Shown here piece by piece: positions 8,896 through 28,008 of a stretch of 43,046 nt of DNA. The notes below the pieces were generated by a model that was not told where the DNA came from, made no database searches, and worked only from the letters and a program-made list of their open reading frames with translations. A program made the position numbers and the translations under genes. This DNA is from a virus: IMG/VR virus record IMGVR_UViG_3300045988_012163; one strand, written 5' to 3'. The first letter of the stretch is position 1. Each line of letters begins with the position of its first letter.

Positions 8896-10116
8896 CTATC
8901 TGTTCCAAAGTGGTGTATACTCGCGCCGATACGCCTTGTTCTTCAGGACCGTATAAGCAAAATACCGTGTTTCATCCATTGCGTGATCGTTTTCTTTGAT
9001 CGGCCTGTCATCGGCGGATTTTTCGTCCCACCGATACAGGCCAAACTCGCGGATGCAGTCTTTGCAATTTCGGTGTATCTTGATTACGCCGTCCTGCAAA
9101 AACCGCGCCGTAGTCATAATACCGTTGGTTACGTCGTTGTTGGCCTTTCGCACCATATAACCACGCCGCCGCAAAACCTCGATAAACGAGGCGGCAGACG
9201 GGTCAACGATGATGCTTTTAACGTTTGCCTCGCCGATGAGCTTTTTAATTTCGTCGGCGTATTCCTCGTCCGTCTTGTTCTTCTGGTTCTCGCGCCCGGA
9301 ATAGTAATACTCGCGGATGCGCGTGGCCGTCTTGCCATCCCATCGCCACAGCCCTGCGGAAAACGGGTTAAGTGTGCCGTAGTCGCAGGACACATAGTAT
9401 TCTCCCTTTTCCGGCAGCTCGTCCACAATGCAGCTCTCGTCAAACATGGGGTAGATCAGGCCCTCGGCCACTACCCACAAGCCGCGAATGTATCGGTCGT
9501 AGAACACGCCGGAAAACATTGCCTGATAGCGTTCCAGCGTCTTTTGAGATAAGCCGGGGTTGTCCGTCATTTCAAAATGCAGATACAGCGCGTTTCGCTC
9601 CTTGTTCCGCTGTATCCACTCTGTATAAAACCAGTGCTGTGGACTTCCCGGGTTGCAAGAAAACCACAGCTTTGCGCCGTCAACGGAGCAGCGGGTCAAG
9701 GCCTGTTCCACAAACGAACGCGGCATAAGCACCACCTCGTCCAGCAGCACCCCCGCCAGCGTGCGGCCTTGTATCAGCGTATAGCTGGCCTCGTCCTTTC
9801 CTCCGAACACCTCGAAGTAATTCGTCACGGCACCGCGCCGCACTTCCATAACCTTGTCGCCGCGCCGCCAGCGGATGATATAGCGCTCCTTTGCCAAACT
9901 CATCGCCGTAAACGGCACGATGATGTTCTTGGTGCAGCTATCCACCGTGCGTCCACACACGCCGAAACGCTGACCGCTGAAATTCTCCATCGCCCAGTGG
10001 ACGAACGCCCACATCATGATGGAGGTCTTGCCGGAACGCACGGCGCCGTCGCAGATCAGCGCGTCATACTTGGAATAGGAAAAAGCAAGGATTTTTGCTT
10101 GTTTTGGGCTAATCAT
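8896..10116 (-). CDS. terL: Terminase large subunit
   Basis: Walker A CDGAVRSGKT. The C-terminal nuclease-type region ends ...HAMDETRYF. Likely start MISPKQ at 10116, overlapping the methylase stop (ATGATTAG). Confidence 0.9.
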   Translation of the reverse strand: MISPKQAKILAFSYSKYDALICDGAVRSGKTSIMMWAFVHWAMENFSGQRFGVCGRTVDSCTKNIIVPFTAMSLAKERYIIRWRRGDKVMEVRRGAVTNYFEVFGGKDEASYTLIQGRTLAGVLLDEVVLMPRSFVEQALTRCSVDGAKLWFSCNPGSPQHWFYTEWIQRNKERNALYLHFEMTDNPGLSQKTLERYQAMFSGVFYDRYIRGLWVVAEGLIYPMFDESCIVDELPEKGEYYVSCDYGTLNPFSAGLWRWDGKTATRIREYYYSGRENQKNKTDEEYADEIKKLIGEANVKSIIVDPSAASFIEVLRRRGYMVRKANNDVTNGIMTTARFLQDGVIKIHRNCKDCIREFGLYRWDEKSADDRPIKENDHAMDETRYFAYTVLKNKAYRREYTPLWNR

Positions 10117-10540
10117 GTGGCATAAATACAACTACCATAGACGGAAATGGAGCAGAATTTTTACTTCCGCCAAATTTTAATCGTCCCCTAATAAACCGAA
10201 TTTCCACATTGTTTCTTTTGTATATGTAATCGTGGAACCATTTTGTATCTGTTCTGGCAGGAAGTAGCATTACGACGGTAGACCCGCTAACGGATGCAAA
10301 TAACGCTCTCCTCACCCATTGCCCGATGCCACGCCCATATGGAGGATTGCACCACACGGTTCCTTTCCACGGATGTTTCAGTCCGTCTTGTTCCTTCGTA
10401 TAGAACTTGTCGCACTTTGCATTTTCTGGAGTTGCACACACATCAAGTGTAAATTGAAATTCATTATTCAGTTTATCAAACAAATCTTGTGGCGTTTCCC
10501 ATAAGTCTGTTTTACTGGAAAACATTAATTCTGTATTCAT
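10109..10540 (-). CDS. Phage Dam-like N6-adenine DNA methyltransferase (copy 1), wedged between terS and terL
   Basis: NPPY motif (WCNPPYGRGIGQW), DVCATPENAKC, LPARTDTKWFHD. Paralog of 16107..16553. ATGA overlap with the terS stop. AT-rich codon usage. Confidence 0.8.
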   Translation of the reverse strand: MNTELMFSSKTDLWETPQDLFDKLNNEFQFTLDVCATPENAKCDKFYTKEQDGLKHPWKGTVWCNPPYGRGIGQWVRRALFASVSGSTVVMLLPARTDTKWFHDYIYKRNNVEIRFIRGRLKFGGSKNSAPFPSMVVVFMPHD

Positions 10541-16106: not shown

Positions 16107-16553
16107 CTAATGTAGCGCTTTCGCGGGGCGGCGAAAAATCACCACCATGCTTGGGAATGGGGCACTGTTCTTTTCTCCGCCGAACTTTAATCTCCCACGC
16201 ACAAAATTGATGGTTGCATATTTGTCGTTGTAGCAGTAATCGTGGAACCAAGCGGTATCCGTCCGCGCCGGAAGCAGCATCACAACTGTTGCGTCTGATT
16301 CCTCGGCGGTTCGATGCGCTTTCTCTACCCACGCCCCAACGCCGCGTCCATATGGGGGATTGCACCACACAACGCCGTCCCAGTCCTGTTTCAGTCCGTC
16401 CATCTCCGGGGTGAAATAGCGTTCGCATTTCGCGTTTTCTGGCGTTGCGCAGGCATCCAGCGTAAATTGGAAGAGGTTGTTGAGATCGTCAAAGAAGGCT
16501 TGCGGGGTCTCCCACATTTCAGATTTTGACGAAAACATTAAATCGTTGTTCAT
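16107..16553 (-). CDS. Phage Dam-like N6-adenine DNA methyltransferase (copy 2)
   Basis: WCNPPYGRGVGAW, DACATPENAKC, LPARTDTAWFHD. Colinear with 10109..10540 but GC-richer. ATGA overlap with the upstream methyltransferase. Confidence 0.8.
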   Translation of the reverse strand: MNNDLMFSSKSEMWETPQAFFDDLNNLFQFTLDACATPENAKCERYFTPEMDGLKQDWDGVVWCNPPYGRGVGAWVEKAHRTAEESDATVVMLLPARTDTAWFHDYCYNDKYATINFVRGRLKFGGEKNSAPFPSMVVIFRRPAKALH

Positions 16554-23185: not shown

Positions 23186-23551
23186 TCATTCGATCGGCTC
23201 CAGATCAAAAATGCTGTCTGGGTAAAAGCTCCAACTCCCGAATCGGGATTTGCTGCACTGTGCGTCATAAAGCCACTCATTCAGCTCGATTTTCTTGGAA
23301 GTCAACGCCGCATCTTCCACGGCGTTTTTCGCTTCGTGCATTTCGATGTATGCCTTCTGGCGGTTAAAGTTATTGATGGACTGTGGCGTTTCGAGCACGC
23401 CCACAAGGATAACCACTACCGCCGTGACTATGGCAATGATAGAGATTGTTTCTACTGCAAACAGGCACAAAGAGGAACCTATCTTTCCATCAAACCAATG
23501 TGAAACGCAGATGGCAATGATCCCGGCAACGATTACAATAATCCAGTTCAT
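23186..23551 (-). CDS. Membrane protein (about 3 TM segments plus a soluble C-domain)
   Basis: MNWIIVIVAGIIAICVSHWF...ISIIAIVTAVVVILVGVL. It is the second gene of the early operon. Confidence 0.55.
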   Translation of the reverse strand: MNWIIVIVAGIIAICVSHWFDGKIGSSLCLFAVETISIIAIVTAVVVILVGVLETPQSINNFNRQKAYIEMHEAKNAVEDAALTSKKIELNEWLYDAQCSKSRFGSWSFYPDSIFDLEPIE

Positions 23552-23772
23552 GCGCCCTCCTTATCCGCTCTTGCAGTCTGCGCGGCTTCCGATGCCGCTC
23601 TGATTTCCTTTTCGGTCACGCCGTACAATCTGGTCAGTGGTCTAATGTACTTGCTTGCGATACCATTCACACCGCGTTCCCAGTTAGACACCGCGGAAAC
23701 TCTTACGCGGAGTTTCTTTGCTACGTCTTCCTGCCGCAAACCGGCATTTTCTCGGATTGCCTTTAATTCCAA
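23548..23772 (-). CDS. Cro-like XRE HTH regulator
   Basis: TTG start 7 nt after AAGGAGGGG. LRQEDVAKKLRVRVSAVSNWERG. First gene of the leftward early operon. Confidence 0.75.
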   Translation of the reverse strand: MELKAIRENAGLRQEDVAKKLRVRVSAVSNWERGVNGIASKYIRPLTRLYGVTEKEIRAASEAAQTARADKEGA

Positions 23773-23787
23773 GCGTTCTCCCCTCCT

Positions 23788-23808
23788 TATAAAGTTCAGA
23801 ACTTTATA
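23788..23808. promoter_or_regulatory. 21-bp perfect palindrome TATAAAGTTC-A-GAACTTTATA (operator candidate)
   Basis: Read directly from the sequence. It abuts the -35 of the rightward promoter and lies in the cro leader next to its SD. Confidence 0.6.
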
Positions 23809-23837
23809 TTGACAAACGCAACCAACACCGCTATTAT
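23809..23837 (+). promoter_or_regulatory. Rightward sigma-A-type promoter (TTGACA-17-TATTAT)
   Basis: TTGACA at 23809..23814, 17-nt spacer, TATTAT at 23832..23837. Confidence 0.65.
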
Positions 23838-23935
23838 GTAAGTGTCAGCCAACAAAATATCGGTTATAAGTCCGCAAAATGGGAAATCCGTTGGGGGCTT
23901 GGTTTTTTGTTGCCTTAATTAAGTTCTGTAAGGCT

Positions 23936-23964
23936 ATTATATTCACTATTTTAGTGAAAGTCAA
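23936..23964 (-). promoter_or_regulatory. Leftward early promoter (TTGACT-17-TATAAT) with 17-bp palindromic operator O1 filling the spacer
   Basis: Minus strand reads TTGACT (23964..23959), spacer TTCACTAAAATAGTGAA (23958..23942), TATAAT (23941..23936). Confidence 0.7.
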
Positions 23965-23970
23965 TCGATT

Positions 23971-23987
23971 TTCGCTAAAATAGTGAA
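23971..23987. promoter_or_regulatory. Operator O2 (TTCGCTAAAATAGTGAA, one mismatch to O1)
   Basis: 29 bp centre-to-centre from O1, just upstream of the -35 of the leftward promoter. Confidence 0.55.
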
Positions 23988-24057
23988 TCTTGGTGCATTA
24001 CACAATTTTCTCAGGTTTGAATTAGCGGATAAATACAAAATGGCATAGGAGATAAAA

Positions 24058-24621
24058 ATGCCAATCGGTGATTTTATTAAAACCCAAGGGGTAAGCTTTT
24101 TAGTGGCAAGAAACAAAGAAACCGTATCCACTGAAAAGGGTTTGCCGAATTGCGATAAAATGCGGGGGAAAGATGCTATCACTTTCCTCCCAACGGTCGA
24201 TATAAAAGAAGGAGACTCCCTGACTTTCCCTGACGGAAGAACGGTATATGTTTCTGAAATTTCAACAGAATACTTTAATGGCGTCGCAAATTATTTGACC
24301 GTTTACTATCAGAAAACACCTAACCCGGAACCCCCTGTACCTCAATCGCAAACAATTTTTAATATTGGAACCGTTACAAACTCGGTAATTGGCAATAACA
24401 ATTCTGTCTCCGTTTCTATCCAAGAGATGAAAGAGCGTGCTGAGCGAGACGGCGGGGATGATAAAGAAACCCTGCAAGAGATCATTTCCATTTTAGAAAA
24501 GATTCTCGCAGGGCAAGAAACGCCAAAACCGGGGCTATTAAGTAAATTCGGTGCTTGTATGGAGCGCAATTCGTGGATAACGGGAGCTATCGCGTCTGCT
24601 TTAATCAACTGGCTGATTTAA
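24058..24621 (+). CDS. Unknown 187-aa protein; first gene of the rightward (lysogenic-side) transcript
   Basis: RBS GGAGATAAAA-ATG, AT-rich. Central TIFNIGTVTNSVIGNNNSVSVSI segment, a helical acidic region, and a hydrophobic tail WITGAIASALINWLI. Confidence 0.65.
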   Translation: MPIGDFIKTQGVSFLVARNKETVSTEKGLPNCDKMRGKDAITFLPTVDIKEGDSLTFPDGRTVYVSEISTEYFNGVANYLTVYYQKTPNPEPPVPQSQTIFNIGTVTNSVIGNNNSVSVSIQEMKERAERDGGDDKETLQEIISILEKILAGQETPKPGLLSKFGACMERNSWITGAIASALINWLI

Positions 24622-24798
24622 GGCCGCCTGAGTTTCCGCAAAACAGCAATCAAGATCGAGCGTCAAGCGTGCACTACCATCGCTGTTCTGCTCCAAATGA
24701 TACGCCTTGACATTATTGATCTCAACGCCGCTAATTTTTACACTGTAATACTTCCCAAAGCACGAAACGGTAATGGATTGCAAGTTTTCTTTTTTCAT
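24601..24798 (-). CDS. Unknown 65-aa protein driven by an O3-controlled promoter
   Basis: Start MKKENLQ at 24798 behind GGAGGAG. Its 3' end overlaps the convergent 24058..24621 gene by 21 nt. Confidence 0.5.
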   Translation of the reverse strand: MKKENLQSITVSCFGKYYSVKISGVEINNVKAYHLEQNSDGSARLTLDLDCCFAETQAALNQPVD

Positions 24799-24832
24799 AA
24801 GGCAGCTCCTCCCTATTTGATAAGGCAATTTT

Positions 24833-24861
24833 ATTGTATTCACTATTTTAGTGAAAGGCAA
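24833..24861 (-). promoter_or_regulatory. Second leftward promoter (TTGCCT-17-TACAAT) with operator O3 identical to O1 in the spacer
   Basis: The 22-nt block TATTCACTATTTTAGTGAAAG (24836..24857) is identical to 23939..23960. Confidence 0.65.
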
Positions 24862-24868
24862 GCATATT

Positions 24869-25237
24869 ATGGATTTATTTAATGATAAGATTAAACCGCT
24901 TTTTGACAGTTCTGGAATGACGGATAGGGAAATTGAAATAGCCCTGGGTCTCCCACGAGGAGTAATTTATAAATGGAAATCCGGGAAGTATAAAAGTTAT
25001 ACGGACTATCTTCCACAAATTTCAAAACACTTTCATATATCCGCCGATTATCTGATGGGCATTGACGCCCCCAAGTCTCCGGTCGAGGCCGAGGGCGTAA
25101 AAGAAGCCCACGATCCGAAGGCCGAGGGTGAGGATGCGCAGCTTGCGCAGCTTATTGCCGGGTTTAGCCGATTGTCTCCGCAGCAGAAGAGTGCAGTGCT
25201 TGCTGTGATAGAAGGTTGTCAACCATCGCAAGAATAA
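24869..25237 (+). CDS. XRE-family HTH protein; candidate immunity repressor
   Basis: MDLFNDKIKPLFDSSGMTDREIEIALGLPRGVIYKWKSGK...ISADYLMG. Lies adjacent to the O3 operator. The ORF also has an upstream GTG at 24851. Confidence 0.6.
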   Translation: MDLFNDKIKPLFDSSGMTDREIEIALGLPRGVIYKWKSGKYKSYTDYLPQISKHFHISADYLMGIDAPKSPVEAEGVKEAHDPKAEGEDAQLAQLIAGFSRLSPQQKSAVLAVIEGCQPSQE

Positions 25238-25301
25238 TATTTTTCTGCTCTGGCGTCAGGTTGGCAAAAAGTTCTGCCGCTTTTTTCGTTTGTTCGTCCA
25301 T
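25164..25301 (-). CDS. Possible small ORF (45 aa) convergent with and overlapping the repressor 3' end
   Basis: GGAGGGACATAATT-ATG. MDEQTKKAAELFANLTPEQKNIILAMVDNLLSQQALHSSAAETIG. The 74-nt overlap with 24869..25237 makes one of the two ends doubtful. Confidence 0.3.
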   Translation of the reverse strand: MDEQTKKAAELFANLTPEQKNIILAMVDNLLSQQALHSSAAETIG

Positions 25302-25392
25302 AATTATGTCCCTCCAAATATTTTTGTAACGGGGCTATATGTTGATTATTGCACTTTGTGCAGTCGAAAATATAAGAAAATGGAGAGTTGAG

Positions 25393-25827
25393 ATGAAAAA
25401 GTTTTTGCTTATCGCGCTGTCTTCGGCTCTCGCGCTCGGCATGTTAACCGCCTGCGGGGAAACAAATCAGTCCGAGCCAGAAAATGAGCCGGAAACTCCG
25501 CCCGATCTCGTTGGAGAATGGAAGCAGACAAACAGCGATGCAGAGGACGCATGGCAGGCCGCTACTATTTCCGGAGATGCCATTGAGGTGTATTGGGTAT
25601 CTGATAACGGAGACACAAAAGCCCTCTATTGGGCCGGTTCTTTCGATGCCCCTACCACGGCGGATGAGCCGTACACCTGGGAATCGGAAAATGATAAAGA
25701 CCAGACCGATATGGCAATTCTCGCCAGCGGCGATGACACCAAGACGTTTACCTATCAGGGCGGCGTAATCAGTTACGAAGTGTCTGCCATGGGAGTTACG
25801 CAGACCGTAAAACTTGAGAAGCAATAA
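25393..25827 (+). CDS. Lipoprotein (candidate superinfection-exclusion / surface protein)
   Basis: MKKFLLIALSSALALGMLTAC with lipobox LTAC. RBS GGAGAG. Followed by a strong terminator. Confidence 0.75.
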   Translation: MKKFLLIALSSALALGMLTACGETNQSEPENEPETPPDLVGEWKQTNSDAEDAWQAATISGDAIEVYWVSDNGDTKALYWAGSFDAPTTADEPYTWESENDKDQTDMAILASGDDTKTFTYQGGVISYEVSAMGVTQTVKLEKQ

Positions 25828-25833
25828 GTAACT

Positions 25834-26039: not shown

Positions 26040-26432
26040 ATGAACATTCAAGAAGTGTGCAGAATCCGTAAAGAAGATTTGAAACTGACCTATCAAGACA
26101 TTTCCGACGTTTCCGGCGTACCGCTGTCCACCGTGCAGAATTTCTTTTCCAAGTTTTCTAAAGCTCCGTCCATCTACACCGTCGTGCCAATCTGCAAATC
26201 GCTTGGAATATCGCTTGATGAAGTGTTCGATATCTCCGAACACTTGACGCCAACAGAAGAAACCTTGCAAGCGCGGAATGATGAGTTGGAACGTCACGTT
26301 GATGCGAAAGCGGACATGATCGAGATCATGCGGCGCGGCGTCCGTATCCGCAACGGCGTGATTGCTGTAATGTTTGTCATTATCATTCTGCTGGCTGCAT
26401 GGTGCTTGTACATTGATTGGAGGGGGATTTGA
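26040..26432 (+). CDS. Membrane-anchored XRE HTH protein
   Basis: HTH LTYQDISDVSGVPLSTVQNFFSK, a coiled-coil segment, and a C-terminal TM VIAVMFVIIILLAAWCLYI. Its TGA overlaps the integrase ATG (TGAATG). Confidence 0.7.
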   Translation: MNIQEVCRIRKEDLKLTYQDISDVSGVPLSTVQNFFSKFSKAPSIYTVVPICKSLGISLDEVFDISEHLTPTEETLQARNDELERHVDAKADMIEIMRRGVRIRNGVIAVMFVIIILLAAWCLYIDWRGI

Positions 26433-27446
26433 ATGAAGATACCGAAAGCAAAACTGCTACCGTCCGGCAACTGGAATGTCAGCGTCATGGTAGACGGAAA
26501 GCGCGTGTCCGTCACAGCTCTTACCAAAAGGCAGGCAGAGAATGAAGCGGCCGCGTTGAAGTCCGGCGCAAAGTCTGCCGCTCGTGCGTCCGAGCGCACG
26601 GTTGGTGATGCTATCGACCGATATATTGACAGCAAGGACGCGATACTCTCCCCCTCCACCGTCAACGGGTACAGAAAACTCCGCAAGGCGGTTTTCCCGG
26701 AGCTGATGAGCGTTAAGTGCTCCGCGTTGACGCAGGATCGCGTGCAGCGTGCCGTGAATAAGATGGCGCGGGAAAAGTCGCCCAAGTACGTCCGCAACGC
26801 TTACGGCCTGTTTACTGCGACAATGGCAGAGGAATTCCCAGATAAAGTGTTCCGTATATCTCTCCCTCAGAAGGAAGCACCTAAAATCAAAATCCCTACC
26901 ATGGACGAGATCAGAATTCTACACGAAGACTGCAAGGGCACGGACTTTGAATTGCCTTTCCTTCTGGCTGTCTGGCTCGGTCTCCGTACATCGGAGATCA
27001 GAGGTCTAACATGGGATTGTCTTGACGGTGATATCCTGACGATTAAGCAAGCAATGGTAGACGGTGAGAACGGCCCGCAGCTCAAGCAGCCCAAAACTTA
27101 CAGTGGAAACAGAAAACTGAAAGTGCCGCCGTATATTATGGGGCTGCTTGACGCAACACCGCACACAGATGAGTATATTGTCCACGCAACCAGAAATGTC
27201 CTATATAAGCATCTGCAACGCGCGTGTGCCCGCTGCGGAGTTCAGCCGTTCCGCTTCCACGACCTCCGCCATGTAAACGCGTCGGTCATGCTCAGGCTCA
27301 ATGTCCCGGACAAATACGCAATGGAGCGCATGGGGCACTCCACAAACAACATGCTTAAAAACGTATATCAGCACACCATGGATGATAAAGCCGTAGCAGT
27401 GGCAGATGCCGTTGACGGCTTTTTTGAATCCGAATTTCATCTGTAA
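26433..27446 (+). CDS. int: Tyrosine integrase
   Basis: LRTSEIRGL (Arg), HDLRHVNAS, GHSTNNMLKNVYQHT (His/Tyr) catalytic signature. Adjacent attP. Confidence 0.9.
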   Translation: MKIPKAKLLPSGNWNVSVMVDGKRVSVTALTKRQAENEAAALKSGAKSAARASERTVGDAIDRYIDSKDAILSPSTVNGYRKLRKAVFPELMSVKCSALTQDRVQRAVNKMAREKSPKYVRNAYGLFTATMAEEFPDKVFRISLPQKEAPKIKIPTMDEIRILHEDCKGTDFELPFLLAVWLGLRTSEIRGLTWDCLDGDILTIKQAMVDGENGPQLKQPKTYSGNRKLKVPPYIMGLLDATPHTDEYIVHATRNVLYKHLQRACARCGVQPFRFHDLRHVNASVMLRLNVPDKYAMERMGHSTNNMLKNVYQHTMDDKAVAVADAVDGFFESEFHL

Positions 27447-27460
27447 TTTCATCTGCAATT
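27438..27460. repeat. attP arm repeat CATCTGTAATTTCATCTGCAATT (copy 1)
   Basis: 22/23 identical to 27666..27688. Extra ATCTGCAA motifs at 27462 and, inverted, at about 27496. Confidence 0.7.
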
Positions 27461-27553
27461 CATCTGCAAAAGTCGTGTTTTAACGGAATATAACTTGCAG
27501 ATATCGCAAGTAATGCGTAAACATGTAAGCTTGAAAACCCTTGCAAATACAAG

Positions 27554-27589
27554 AAAAACCCCGCAGCCGTTGAAACTGCGAGGTTTTTT
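27554..27589 (+). terminator. Bidirectional-looking terminator (AAAAACCCCGCAG-N9-CTGCGAGGTTTTTT)
   Basis: Hairpin at 27559..27583 flanked by an A-run and a T-run. Lies after the integrase and directly after the tRNA-like 3' end on the other strand. Confidence 0.65.
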
Positions 27590-27592
27590 CAT

Positions 27593-27630
27593 TGGTGGAG
27601 GCGGCGGGAGTCGAACCCGCAACCGAAACC
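27593..27630 (-). other. 3' fragment of a tRNA/tmRNA (T-arm, acceptor 3' strand, ACCA): attP core
   Basis: Minus strand reads GGTTT-CGGTT-GCGGG-TTCGACT-CCCGC-CGCCTCC-ACCA. No D-arm or normal anticodon arm lies upstream. Confidence 0.7.
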
Positions 27631-27665
27631 GCAAAAGCATTGATATTACACGGTTTTTTGATACG

Positions 27666-27688
27666 CATCTGTAATTCCATCTGCAATT
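27666..27688. repeat. attP arm repeat CATCTGTAATTCCATCTGCAATT (copy 2)
   Basis: Direct repeat of 27438..27460, flanking the tRNA-like core. Confidence 0.7.
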
Positions 27689-28008
27689 TACTTTTCCAGT
27701 TTGCGCATGACGCTATTATAGACGCGCTCGTTTACAATTTTCAAGCTGTCCATCAGCTCGTCCATAATCACCCATGCCTTGTCTGGCGGAACGTCTGCCA
27801 CAGCCCGCAGAAAATCGCTGTCGCCGTATGTTTCGACGTTGACCGGCGCGGGCGCTGCGGAGTATGCCATTGGCAAAGCCCTCTCTCTGCTGCCGCTTTG
27901 CTGGTCCCGGATGGCATACAGCACGGCAAGGCGCTCATAGTTTGTCCAACTTGATTCTTCCGTCTCGAGGCGAGCTATCCAGCGATTGACCTCATTTTCG
28001 TCAACCAT
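27688..28008 (-). CDS. Hypothetical protein
   Basis: 106 aa. Last gene of a three-gene minus-strand set next to attP. Confidence 0.5.
   Translation of the reverse strand: MVDENEVNRWIARLETEESSWTNYERLAVLYAIRDQQSGSRERALPMAYSAAPAPVNVETYGDSDFLRAVADVPPDKAWVIMDELMDSLKIVNERVYNSVMRKLEK

Follow-up and report, generated by a model that had tools for sequence, protein, structure and literature searches.

A convergent gene pair conserved in immunity regions of temperate phages from gut Clostridia: a possible anti-phage protein with a lytic off-switch

Why would a temperate phage let a gene of its lysogenic side run head-on into a gene of its lytic side? The question is raised by positions 24,058 to 24,798 of the virus record IMGVR_UViG_3300045988_012163, a stretch of 43,046 nucleotides (nt) that was analysed whole and is called the window below. 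Here a gene for a protein of 187 amino acids (aa), the large gene, and a gene for a 65-aa protein, the small gene, converge and overlap at their 3′ ends (Table 1). The phages that carry the pair appear to be temperate and to infect gut Clostridia, and the pair sits in their immunity region. We tentatively read it as a conserved accessory (“moron”) module, in which a lysogen-expressed, probably anti-phage protein would be provided with an off-switch for the lytic cycle. This is the best reading because of the regulation of the two genes, their defence-type context, their partnership and the precedent of Tab/anti-Tab.

Conservation of the gene pair

Both the 187-aa and the 65-aa genes are genuine genes. 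A full HMMER profile search places the large protein in a family of 535 representative clusters at E ≤ 1e-3 (254 at E ≤ 1e-10), where a word-indexed search gave 31 clusters only, and across 12 relatives its ratio of nonsynonymous to synonymous polymorphism (pN/pS) is 0.30. The small protein has homologues down to ~15-20% identity in which the strand pattern is kept. In the same relatives its pN/pS is 0.20 in its own frame and exceeds 1 in all but one of the other five; that remaining frame, an antisense one with which it shares wobble positions, is not open in the window. This in-frame purifying selection bears out the initial annotation, made from the letters of the DNA, in treating the 65-aa open reading frame (ORF) as a protein gene. 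Its coordinates for both ORFs and the 21-nt convergent overlap agree with ours, and each gene has a Shine-Dalgarno sequence: AGGAGA 5′ of 24058 for the large gene, and GGGAGGAG 5′ of the minus-strand ATG at 24798 for the small gene. The large gene had also been called strongly AT-rich. The bias is real, but only moderate: the GC content is 42.6% in the large gene and 42.4% in the small gene, against 53.6% for the whole window.

Table 1 Features of the immunity region and its flank in the window.
Feature	Coordinates	Strand	Remarks
Cro-like XRE helix-turn-helix (HTH) gene, 74 aa	23548-23772	-	Pfam HTH_3 E 2e-11; TTG start, AAGGAGGGGAG upstream
Candidate promoter of the 187-aa gene, TTGACA-17-TATTAT	23809-23837	+	11/12 match; putative function
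Early lytic promoter, TTGACT-17-TATAAT	23936-23964	-	11/12 match; operator O1a occupies the spacer
Operators O1a (23942-23958, exact) and O1b (23971-23987, one mismatch)	23942-23987		Palindrome scan
187-aa large gene	24058-24621	+	N-domain, residues 1-90 (24058-24327); C-module, residues 91-187 (24328-24618)
Coding-sequence 3′ overlap	24601-24621		21 nt shared by the 187-aa and 65-aa genes
65-aa small gene	24601-24798	-	Homologues, pN/pS, AlphaFold2 (AF2) model
Promoter of the 65-aa gene, TTGCCT-17-TACAAT	24833-24861	-	9/12 match; operator O2 (24839-24855, exact) occupies the spacer
XRE-type immunity repressor gene, 122 aa	24869-25237	+	PHROG 8/4 transcriptional regulator/repressor; putative DNA binding
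Integrase gene	26433-27446	+	Right of the repressor, lipoprotein and 130-aa genes

The arrangement is kept well beyond the window. We compared 98 loci with a large gene (54 distinct genes) from viral contigs, genomes and metagenomes, with hosts that include Lachnospiraceae, Blautia producta and Waltera: in 94 of them a convergent small gene, confirmed by a hidden Markov model (HMM), shares 9-56 nt with the 3′ end of the large gene. The four exceptions are L011, one locus each from Bacillus and Paenibacillus, and a short contig on which the large gene is an HTH-fused variant. A convergent overlapping small gene (E 9e-11) is kept even with variant P0124, whose N-domain is of the winged-helix type. 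Divergence of the small protein follows that of the C-module of the large protein (partial r 0.62) rather than that of its N-domain (0.15), and a recombinant locus (L099) joins an N-domain of the L009 type to a C-module and small gene of the L001 type.

Operators, promoters and the convergent junction

The initial annotation had placed the small gene under the operator of the early lytic promoter. The operator is the 17-bp palindrome TTCACTATTTTAGTGAA, for which 0.06 matches are expected by chance; it occurs in two exact copies and in a third with one mismatch. Both exact copies occupy the 17-nt spacers of minus-strand sigma-70-like promoters, one that of the early lytic promoter, which serves the long leftward early lytic operon headed by the 74-aa Cro-like gene, and the other that of the small gene.

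Heteroimmune relatives connect these operators with the 122-aa gene. L021 and L026 are ~91-95% identical to the window over 23540-25260, and in both all three operators have been exchanged together with the HTH half of the 122-aa gene (window 23936-23987 and 24833-25050 against L021:4880-4935 and 5780-5950, and likewise in L026). Their palindromes are of the TTCGTAAT.TTACGAA type, in place of TTCACTA...TAGTGAA. The exchange spares the 187-aa, 65-aa and Cro-like genes, which are conserved, as is the rest of the 122-aa gene, its C-terminal half. A third relative, L022, is of the window type in its operators and its repressor HTH half. Since the operators and the HTH half co-vary, we infer that the 122-aa protein is the immunity repressor and acts on both promoters. 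With its promoter under the repressor, the small gene should be shut in the lysogen and expressed once the prophage is induced, and the earlier proposal to that effect is well founded. Whatever the function of the pair, the heteroimmune relatives give a clean repressor and operator assignment for this phage group.

The large gene appears to be read from the other side. Its candidate promoter, a strong match, faces the early lytic promoter ~85 nt away, and both of its hexamers are invariant in the window, L021, L022 and L026 despite the differing operators next to it. The gene is co-oriented with those for repressor and integrase. Between 23982 and 25215 the plus strand has no further promoter match of 9/12 or better, and the repressor gene, whose ribosome-binding site lies directly after O2, is therefore probably on the same transcript, read through the large gene.

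Other loci vary this theme. L005, whose large protein is 60% identical, has the same operator pair followed by a plus-strand operon of a 236-aa gene, a repressor homologue and the large gene, the last two separated by 11 nt; in L027 the large gene is likewise preceded by a same-strand HTH gene. In the classic layout of distant phages (L001, L013, L014, L120 and L129), the plus-strand repressor gene diverges from minus-strand cro and small genes, on which the plus-strand large gene converges; operators occur only in the repressor/cro intergenic region, and the large gene is antisense within the operon of cro, small and early genes. Sigma-70-like promoter sites lie closely upstream of the large gene in two distant loci, L001 and L009. 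The conserved promoter, the shared orientation with repressor and integrase, and the position directly downstream of a repressor homologue in relatives all argue for the lysogenic-side assignment made at the outset. The expression logic, in which one gene would be on the repressor side and the other repressor-controlled, is well supported by these comparisons.

No terminator-like site was found at the convergent junction, so the two transcripts must overlap. The plus strand of the junction gives no structure signal (fold z = +1.0), and the value for the minus strand (z = -2.1) stems from a hairpin at 24470-24513 inside the large gene, without a clear U-tract. As a candidate for a conserved RNA element at the junction, Rfam returned only spurious miRNA matches, on the palindromic operators, and these were discarded.

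Two further sites were seen inside small genes. Inside the 65-aa gene, minus-strand positions 24697-24725 carry a promoter-like TTGAGA-17-TATCAT (10/12), from which a short antisense RNA against the 3′ end of the 187-aa gene would arise independently of the operator-controlled promoter. In L014 (Blautia producta DSM 2950, NZ_CP039126, prophage at about 5.564-5.577 Mb), a hairpin with a 13-bp stem lies at 6602-6635 (+), 20 nt past the stop codon of the large gene and inside the coding sequence of the small gene; it could end the large-gene transcript there, and has no counterpart in the window.

The two protein families

The AF2 model of the 187-aa protein matches the anatomy first proposed for it, a beta-rich N-domain, a stretch rich in N, S, V, I and G, and a helical segment. 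The N-domain (residues 1-85) is modelled with a predicted local distance difference test (pLDDT) score of ~90, the stretch (FNIG..SVIG..N, residues 91-118) with one below 50 and four C-terminal helices (residues 121-186) with ~70. As was also noted at the outset, the protein has no recognisable HTH: none was detected in domain searches. The stretch had in addition been likened to amyloid-type motifs, a description whose sole basis is the low-confidence segment of residues 91-118 and which we do not retain.

Most family members are 185-205 aa long and match end to end, and the conserved part of the family is the C-module, made up of the FNIG..SVIG motif and the four helices. PHROG 21028, a family without assigned function, matches residues 97-184 with profile positions 92-186 of 191 (E 1.4e-10), covering the C-half only and leaving the N-domain outside. 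Elsewhere the C-module is fused to an XRE HTH (P0147; Pfam HTH_3 E 5e-13), to YjcQ-like winged helices and to other domains. Two members, P0113 and P0135, are without the FNIG motif. The N-domain appears to evolve faster than the C-module: its pN/pS is 0.38 against 0.21, and between the window and L001 its identity is 26% against 53%.

Foldseek searches with the modelled N-domain returned phage neck components. In the PDB they matched 8zdj_M, the connector of mycobacteriophage Douge (E 3.8e-3, target template modelling (TM) score 0.54), as well as 9l0e, 9gb5, 7z4w_1 and 3f3b; the T1 stopper, the phiCD508 neck, SPP1 gp16 and PBSX XkdH are among the PDB matches. Those in BFVD reached E values down to 8.6e-5 at target TM scores of 0.5-0.6, under the names head-tail connector, joining and closure protein. 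No sequence match of the N-domain to structural families of Pfam or PHROG was found, and the 187-aa gene sits in the immunity region, not in the structural module. The model thus points to a domain that is head-closure- or neck-like at the level of the fold only, and not to a virion neck protein. Short matches that might have been stand-alone N-domains in structural modules turned out to be frameshifted or truncated copies of the same gene.

The initial annotation had further suggested that the large protein acts at the membrane. The best 19-residue Kyte-Doolittle mean is 0.71 in the 187-aa protein and 0.66-1.14 across 22 family members; as controls, transmembrane and lipoprotein segments encoded in the window give 2.0-3.0, and true transmembrane segments ~3.0. 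Hydropathy predicts no transmembrane helix in the 187-aa protein, the C-terminal tail was rejected as a transmembrane segment on this ground, and the suggestion of membrane action is not supported.

The 65-aa protein is modelled as a four-stranded beta sheet with its strands within residues 9-49 (pLDDT 76), and Foldseek found no match to it in the PDB with E < 0.5. For scans of viral contigs the alignment of the small proteins was too divergent, and a scan with the single protein P0050 gave no confirmed hits.

Both families are uncharacterised. In the GenBank phage collection only one unannotated metagenomic phage and gp51 of phiCDHM1, a “hypothetical protein”, were matched, and all named database homologues are hypothetical proteins too. 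A match to Pfam VMAP-M1 (vWA-MoxR associated protein middle region) scored 13.2 bits (E 0.14), short of the gathering threshold of 25, and was treated as chance; matches to FANCI_HD2 and MlaD were rejected as chance as well.

Possible roles of the pair, and neighbouring genes

A lysogen effector with a lytic-cycle neutraliser, the logic first proposed for the pair, has an experimentally shown precedent of the same gene topology. In Pseudomonas phage JBD26, tab lies on the opposite strand inside a lytic operon, with its own promoter and expression from the prophage, and the lytic-operon gene that adjoins it converges on it and encodes an inhibitor that sequesters Tab (PMC10884400). The locus studied here likewise has an opposite-strand gene with its own (predicted) promoter inside or abutting the lytic operon, and the neighbouring lytic-operon gene converges on it. 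The target of Tab is a component of virion assembly, which is suggestive given the neck-like fold of the N-domain. The two systems differ in several respects: Tab has 83 aa and is encoded between the terminase genes in the late operon, whereas the 187-aa protein has two domains and is encoded in the immunity and early region; only here is the partner's promoter predicted to be directly repressor-controlled; and Tab and anti-Tab always occur together, whereas here the partner is found in 94 of the 98 loci and the coupling is not obligatory.

The slot that holds the large gene has the look of a variable accessory or defence hotspot. In the related backbone L100-L103, only an N-terminal remnant of the large gene is left and the slot carries an Mrr-like nuclease, a 123-aa protein and an 87-aa protein. 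The lysogeny module of L001 includes a PDC-S25 (SIR2-type) gene (E 6e-156), and AbiTii stands beside the Paenibacillus family member. Lysogen-expressed moron loci often give phage resistance (PMC7067206; PMC10884400).

Two of these loci contain further genes. L100:5281-7176 (also in L101-L103) encodes the Mrr-like nuclease, which has PADLOC ZorD-nuclease/PDC-S02 matches, together with a repressor homologue, a 43-aa remnant of the N-terminus of the large gene, and a convergent overlapping pair in which a 123-aa protein with a winged HTH (wHTH) and a hydrophobic tail is opposed by the 87-aa protein. L016:4128-7129 (Paenibacillus sp. ACRSA) encodes a 301-aa family member made of a wHTH, a beta domain and the C-module, in a same-strand cluster with AbiTii, a 73-aa protein (IG.NN.I repeat and a transmembrane helix), a 197-aa protein and an Excalibur-domain membrane protein; the cluster resembles a defence island.

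We propose that the lysogen makes the 187-aa protein, which would act against superinfecting phages. Its exchangeable, fast-evolving N-domain may recognise a phage component, and the conserved C-module, with its beta-prone FNIG..SVIG motif and four helices, may oligomerise or execute the effect. When the prophage itself is induced, loss of the repressor would let the promoter of the 65-aa gene fire, and the 3′ end of the 187-aa gene would become covered by head-on transcription and antisense RNA; the small beta protein may, in addition, bind to the C-module. The combined effect would be to turn the function off and spare the phage's own lytic cycle.

Several observations weigh against this proposal. 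The promoters are sigma-70-like consensus matches only and their assignments are predictions. Neither protein matched a PADLOC-DB v2 family at E ≤ 1, and sequence searches of Pfam, NCBIfam and the PDB with both proteins returned nothing past threshold. An HMM of the N-domain, run against the proteins of this window, found nothing else. The tracking of the C-module by the small protein could be plain linkage of adjacent DNA. Above all, either gene can be present alone. An intact small gene is found where the large gene has been lost or replaced (L100-L103, in at least 24 contigs, and L115-L119), and large genes without a small gene are found in L011, at the Bacillus and Paenibacillus loci, in Clostridioides difficile phage phiCDHM1, and for P0120 and P0106. 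In phiCDHM1, gp51 consists of a wHTH and the C-module, lies antisense in the early operon and faces the unrelated helical 61-aa protein gp50. Antidote dependence is therefore not obligatory, and a strict toxin/antidote co-dependence is ruled out. The convergent overlapping unit stands, and the antidote role that had been suggested for the 65-aa gene is weakened.

These separate occurrences are the strength of the main rival, by which the two genes are neighbours by position only. The 65-aa gene would be an ordinary early gene of the backbone with a function of its own, bordering a cargo hotspot, the 187-aa gene a lysogen-expressed moron, for defence or otherwise, in need of no antidote, the overlap a matter of compaction and the interference a by-product. 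Agreeing with this, the C-terminal tail of the small protein is poorly conserved in the overlap, as if it merely ran over the conserved end of the large gene, and other convergent overlapping pairs are found in the slot, such as the 123-aa and 87-aa genes of L100. The same account would not lead one to expect that a direct, spacer-free overlap is kept in 94 of the 98 loci, down to a large-protein identity of ~35%, that the small gene is retained with a variant carrying a different N-domain, that low GC is common to both genes, or that the small protein tracks the C-module. We consider mere adjacency possible but rather unlikely.

A role in the switch between lysis and lysogeny, the second rival, strikes us as improbable. 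The pair would here tune that decision and have no part in host defence. As one possibility, the lysogen-side protein could sequester or antagonise an anti-repressor-like early small protein; as another, convergent transcription from the promoter of the large gene could damp leaky early transcription and feed repressor expression. Position speaks for such a role: the pair is always in the immunity region between the repressor and the early genes, the repressor transcript includes the large gene or lies downstream of it, and at most one gene precedes the small gene in the early operon under repressor control. Some family members, too, have HTH or wHTH N-domains. The lytic and lysogenic promoters, at 23809-23964, also stand face to face like pR and pL of coliphage 186, whose convergent arrangement causes transcriptional interference (PMC5001618 for the principle), and the convergent transcripts overlap at their 3′ ends like lambda oop RNA and cII, here without a terminator between them. 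Those systems regulate the repressor, integrase or CII, whereas the target here would be an accessory protein and the interference is presumed. The large gene is, moreover, dispensable in a closely related backbone (L100) and AT-rich like acquired cargo, the N-domain of the window's own member is without a DNA-binding fold, and its slot-mates are defence-type genes.

The mechanism first put forward, in which an amyloid-like toxin would act at the membrane to abort infection and a protein or antisense RNA would serve as antitoxin, similar to a type I toxin-antitoxin system, is highly improbable: the transcripts do converge and overlap at their 3′ ends, the N/S/V/I/G stretch is disordered in the monomer model and a 15-residue hydrophobic C-terminal stretch reaches a Kyte-Doolittle mean of 1.59, but the 19-residue means given above stay far below those of true transmembrane segments nearby in every family member, the tail runs on into polar residues (..WLTTQIH) in most of them, P0113 and P0135 lack the FNIG motif, and 187 residues with a folded soluble domain are unlike a type I toxin. 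Type I toxins are small hydrophobic peptides of under ~60 aa.

Known classes were set aside on similar grounds. A type I toxin-antitoxin system is ruled out by a “toxin” of 187 aa with a folded beta domain and by a partner that is protein-coding, as its pN/pS shows, and a type II system by genes that are convergent on opposite strands and not in one operon. A membrane abortive-infection or exclusion effector (RexB-, Sie- or holin-like) was rejected for want of a transmembrane helix by hydropathy.

Two other systems are looser analogues than Tab/anti-Tab. As is the case with lambda cI-rexA-rexB and P22 sieA/sieB, whose exclusion genes are expressed along with the repressor, the accessory gene is co-oriented with the repressor gene, in relatives lies in the same operon, and would therefore be active in the lysogen. 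There is no homology to rex, however; RexB spans the membrane several times, the 187-aa protein is predicted to have no transmembrane helix, and lambda is without a convergent early partner gene. With BstA/aba, an abortive-infection protein of prophages and its self-immunity element, the locus would share the concept of a prophage defence that would hit the phage's own lytic cycle and is paired with cis-encoded self-immunity. The aba element, unlike the small gene, is a DNA element inside bstA and not a convergent protein gene, and again there is no homology.

If the pair does encode an anti-phage protein with a lytic off-switch, it would be a second, unrelated case of the Tab/anti-Tab principle, a prophage defence with an antidote for the phage's own lytic cycle. 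It would be found in abundant, experimentally neglected temperate phages of human-gut Clostridia, with hosts such as Blautia, Lachnospiraceae, Oscillospiraceae-like bacteria and, for phiCDHM1, C. difficile. A large unannotated family with a swappable recognition domain would gain a role, and the small-protein family might be anti-defence. A more specific version, which we regard as speculative and unlikely in its entirety, would see a two-gene prophage module of gut Firmicutes, of more than 500 protein clusters, in which a domesticated neck- or head-closure-like (or DNA-binding) domain baits a component of the superinfecting phage and the C-module blocks virion completion or aborts the infection. 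The convergent, repressor-controlled gene would supply both an antisense off-switch and a small beta-protein inhibitor, and phages that carry the small gene only would use it as anti-defence against lysogens that have the large gene.

The flank of the immunity region holds further genes and ORFs. Converging on the repressor gene, a 45-aa ORF at 25164-25301 (-) overlaps its 3′ end by 74 nt; it has a weak DUF7438 match only, and would be a second convergent overlapping pair in the region. Between the repressor and integrase genes, 25393-25827 (+) encodes a lipoprotein (lipobox ..LTAC|G) with weak PHROG matches only, in the position where Gram-positive prophages typically encode Ltp-like superinfection-exclusion lipoproteins. 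In L021, L026 and L022 this gene is absent or has been replaced, and their alignment to the window breaks at 25354-25830. Directly upstream of the integrase gene and overlapping its start, 26040-26432 (+) encodes a protein of 130 aa that combines an XRE HTH with a transmembrane helix at its C-terminus; homologues occupy the same position in L027 (137 aa) and in L100 (208 aa, beside a serine recombinase).

ARAGORN found no tRNA in the window. Directly after the integrase gene, the stretch 27446-27700, translated as ..VEAAGVEPAT.., resembles a tRNA 3′ end in reverse complement and could be a partial tRNA at the attachment site. Farther away, 10109-10540 (-) and 16107-16553 (-) encode paralogues of ~145 aa with near-identical N-termini (MN.ELMFSSK...WETPQ..F..LN..FQFTLD.CATPENAKC), one beside the terminase region and one in the early region, which we take to resemble phage DNA N6-adenine methyltransferases.

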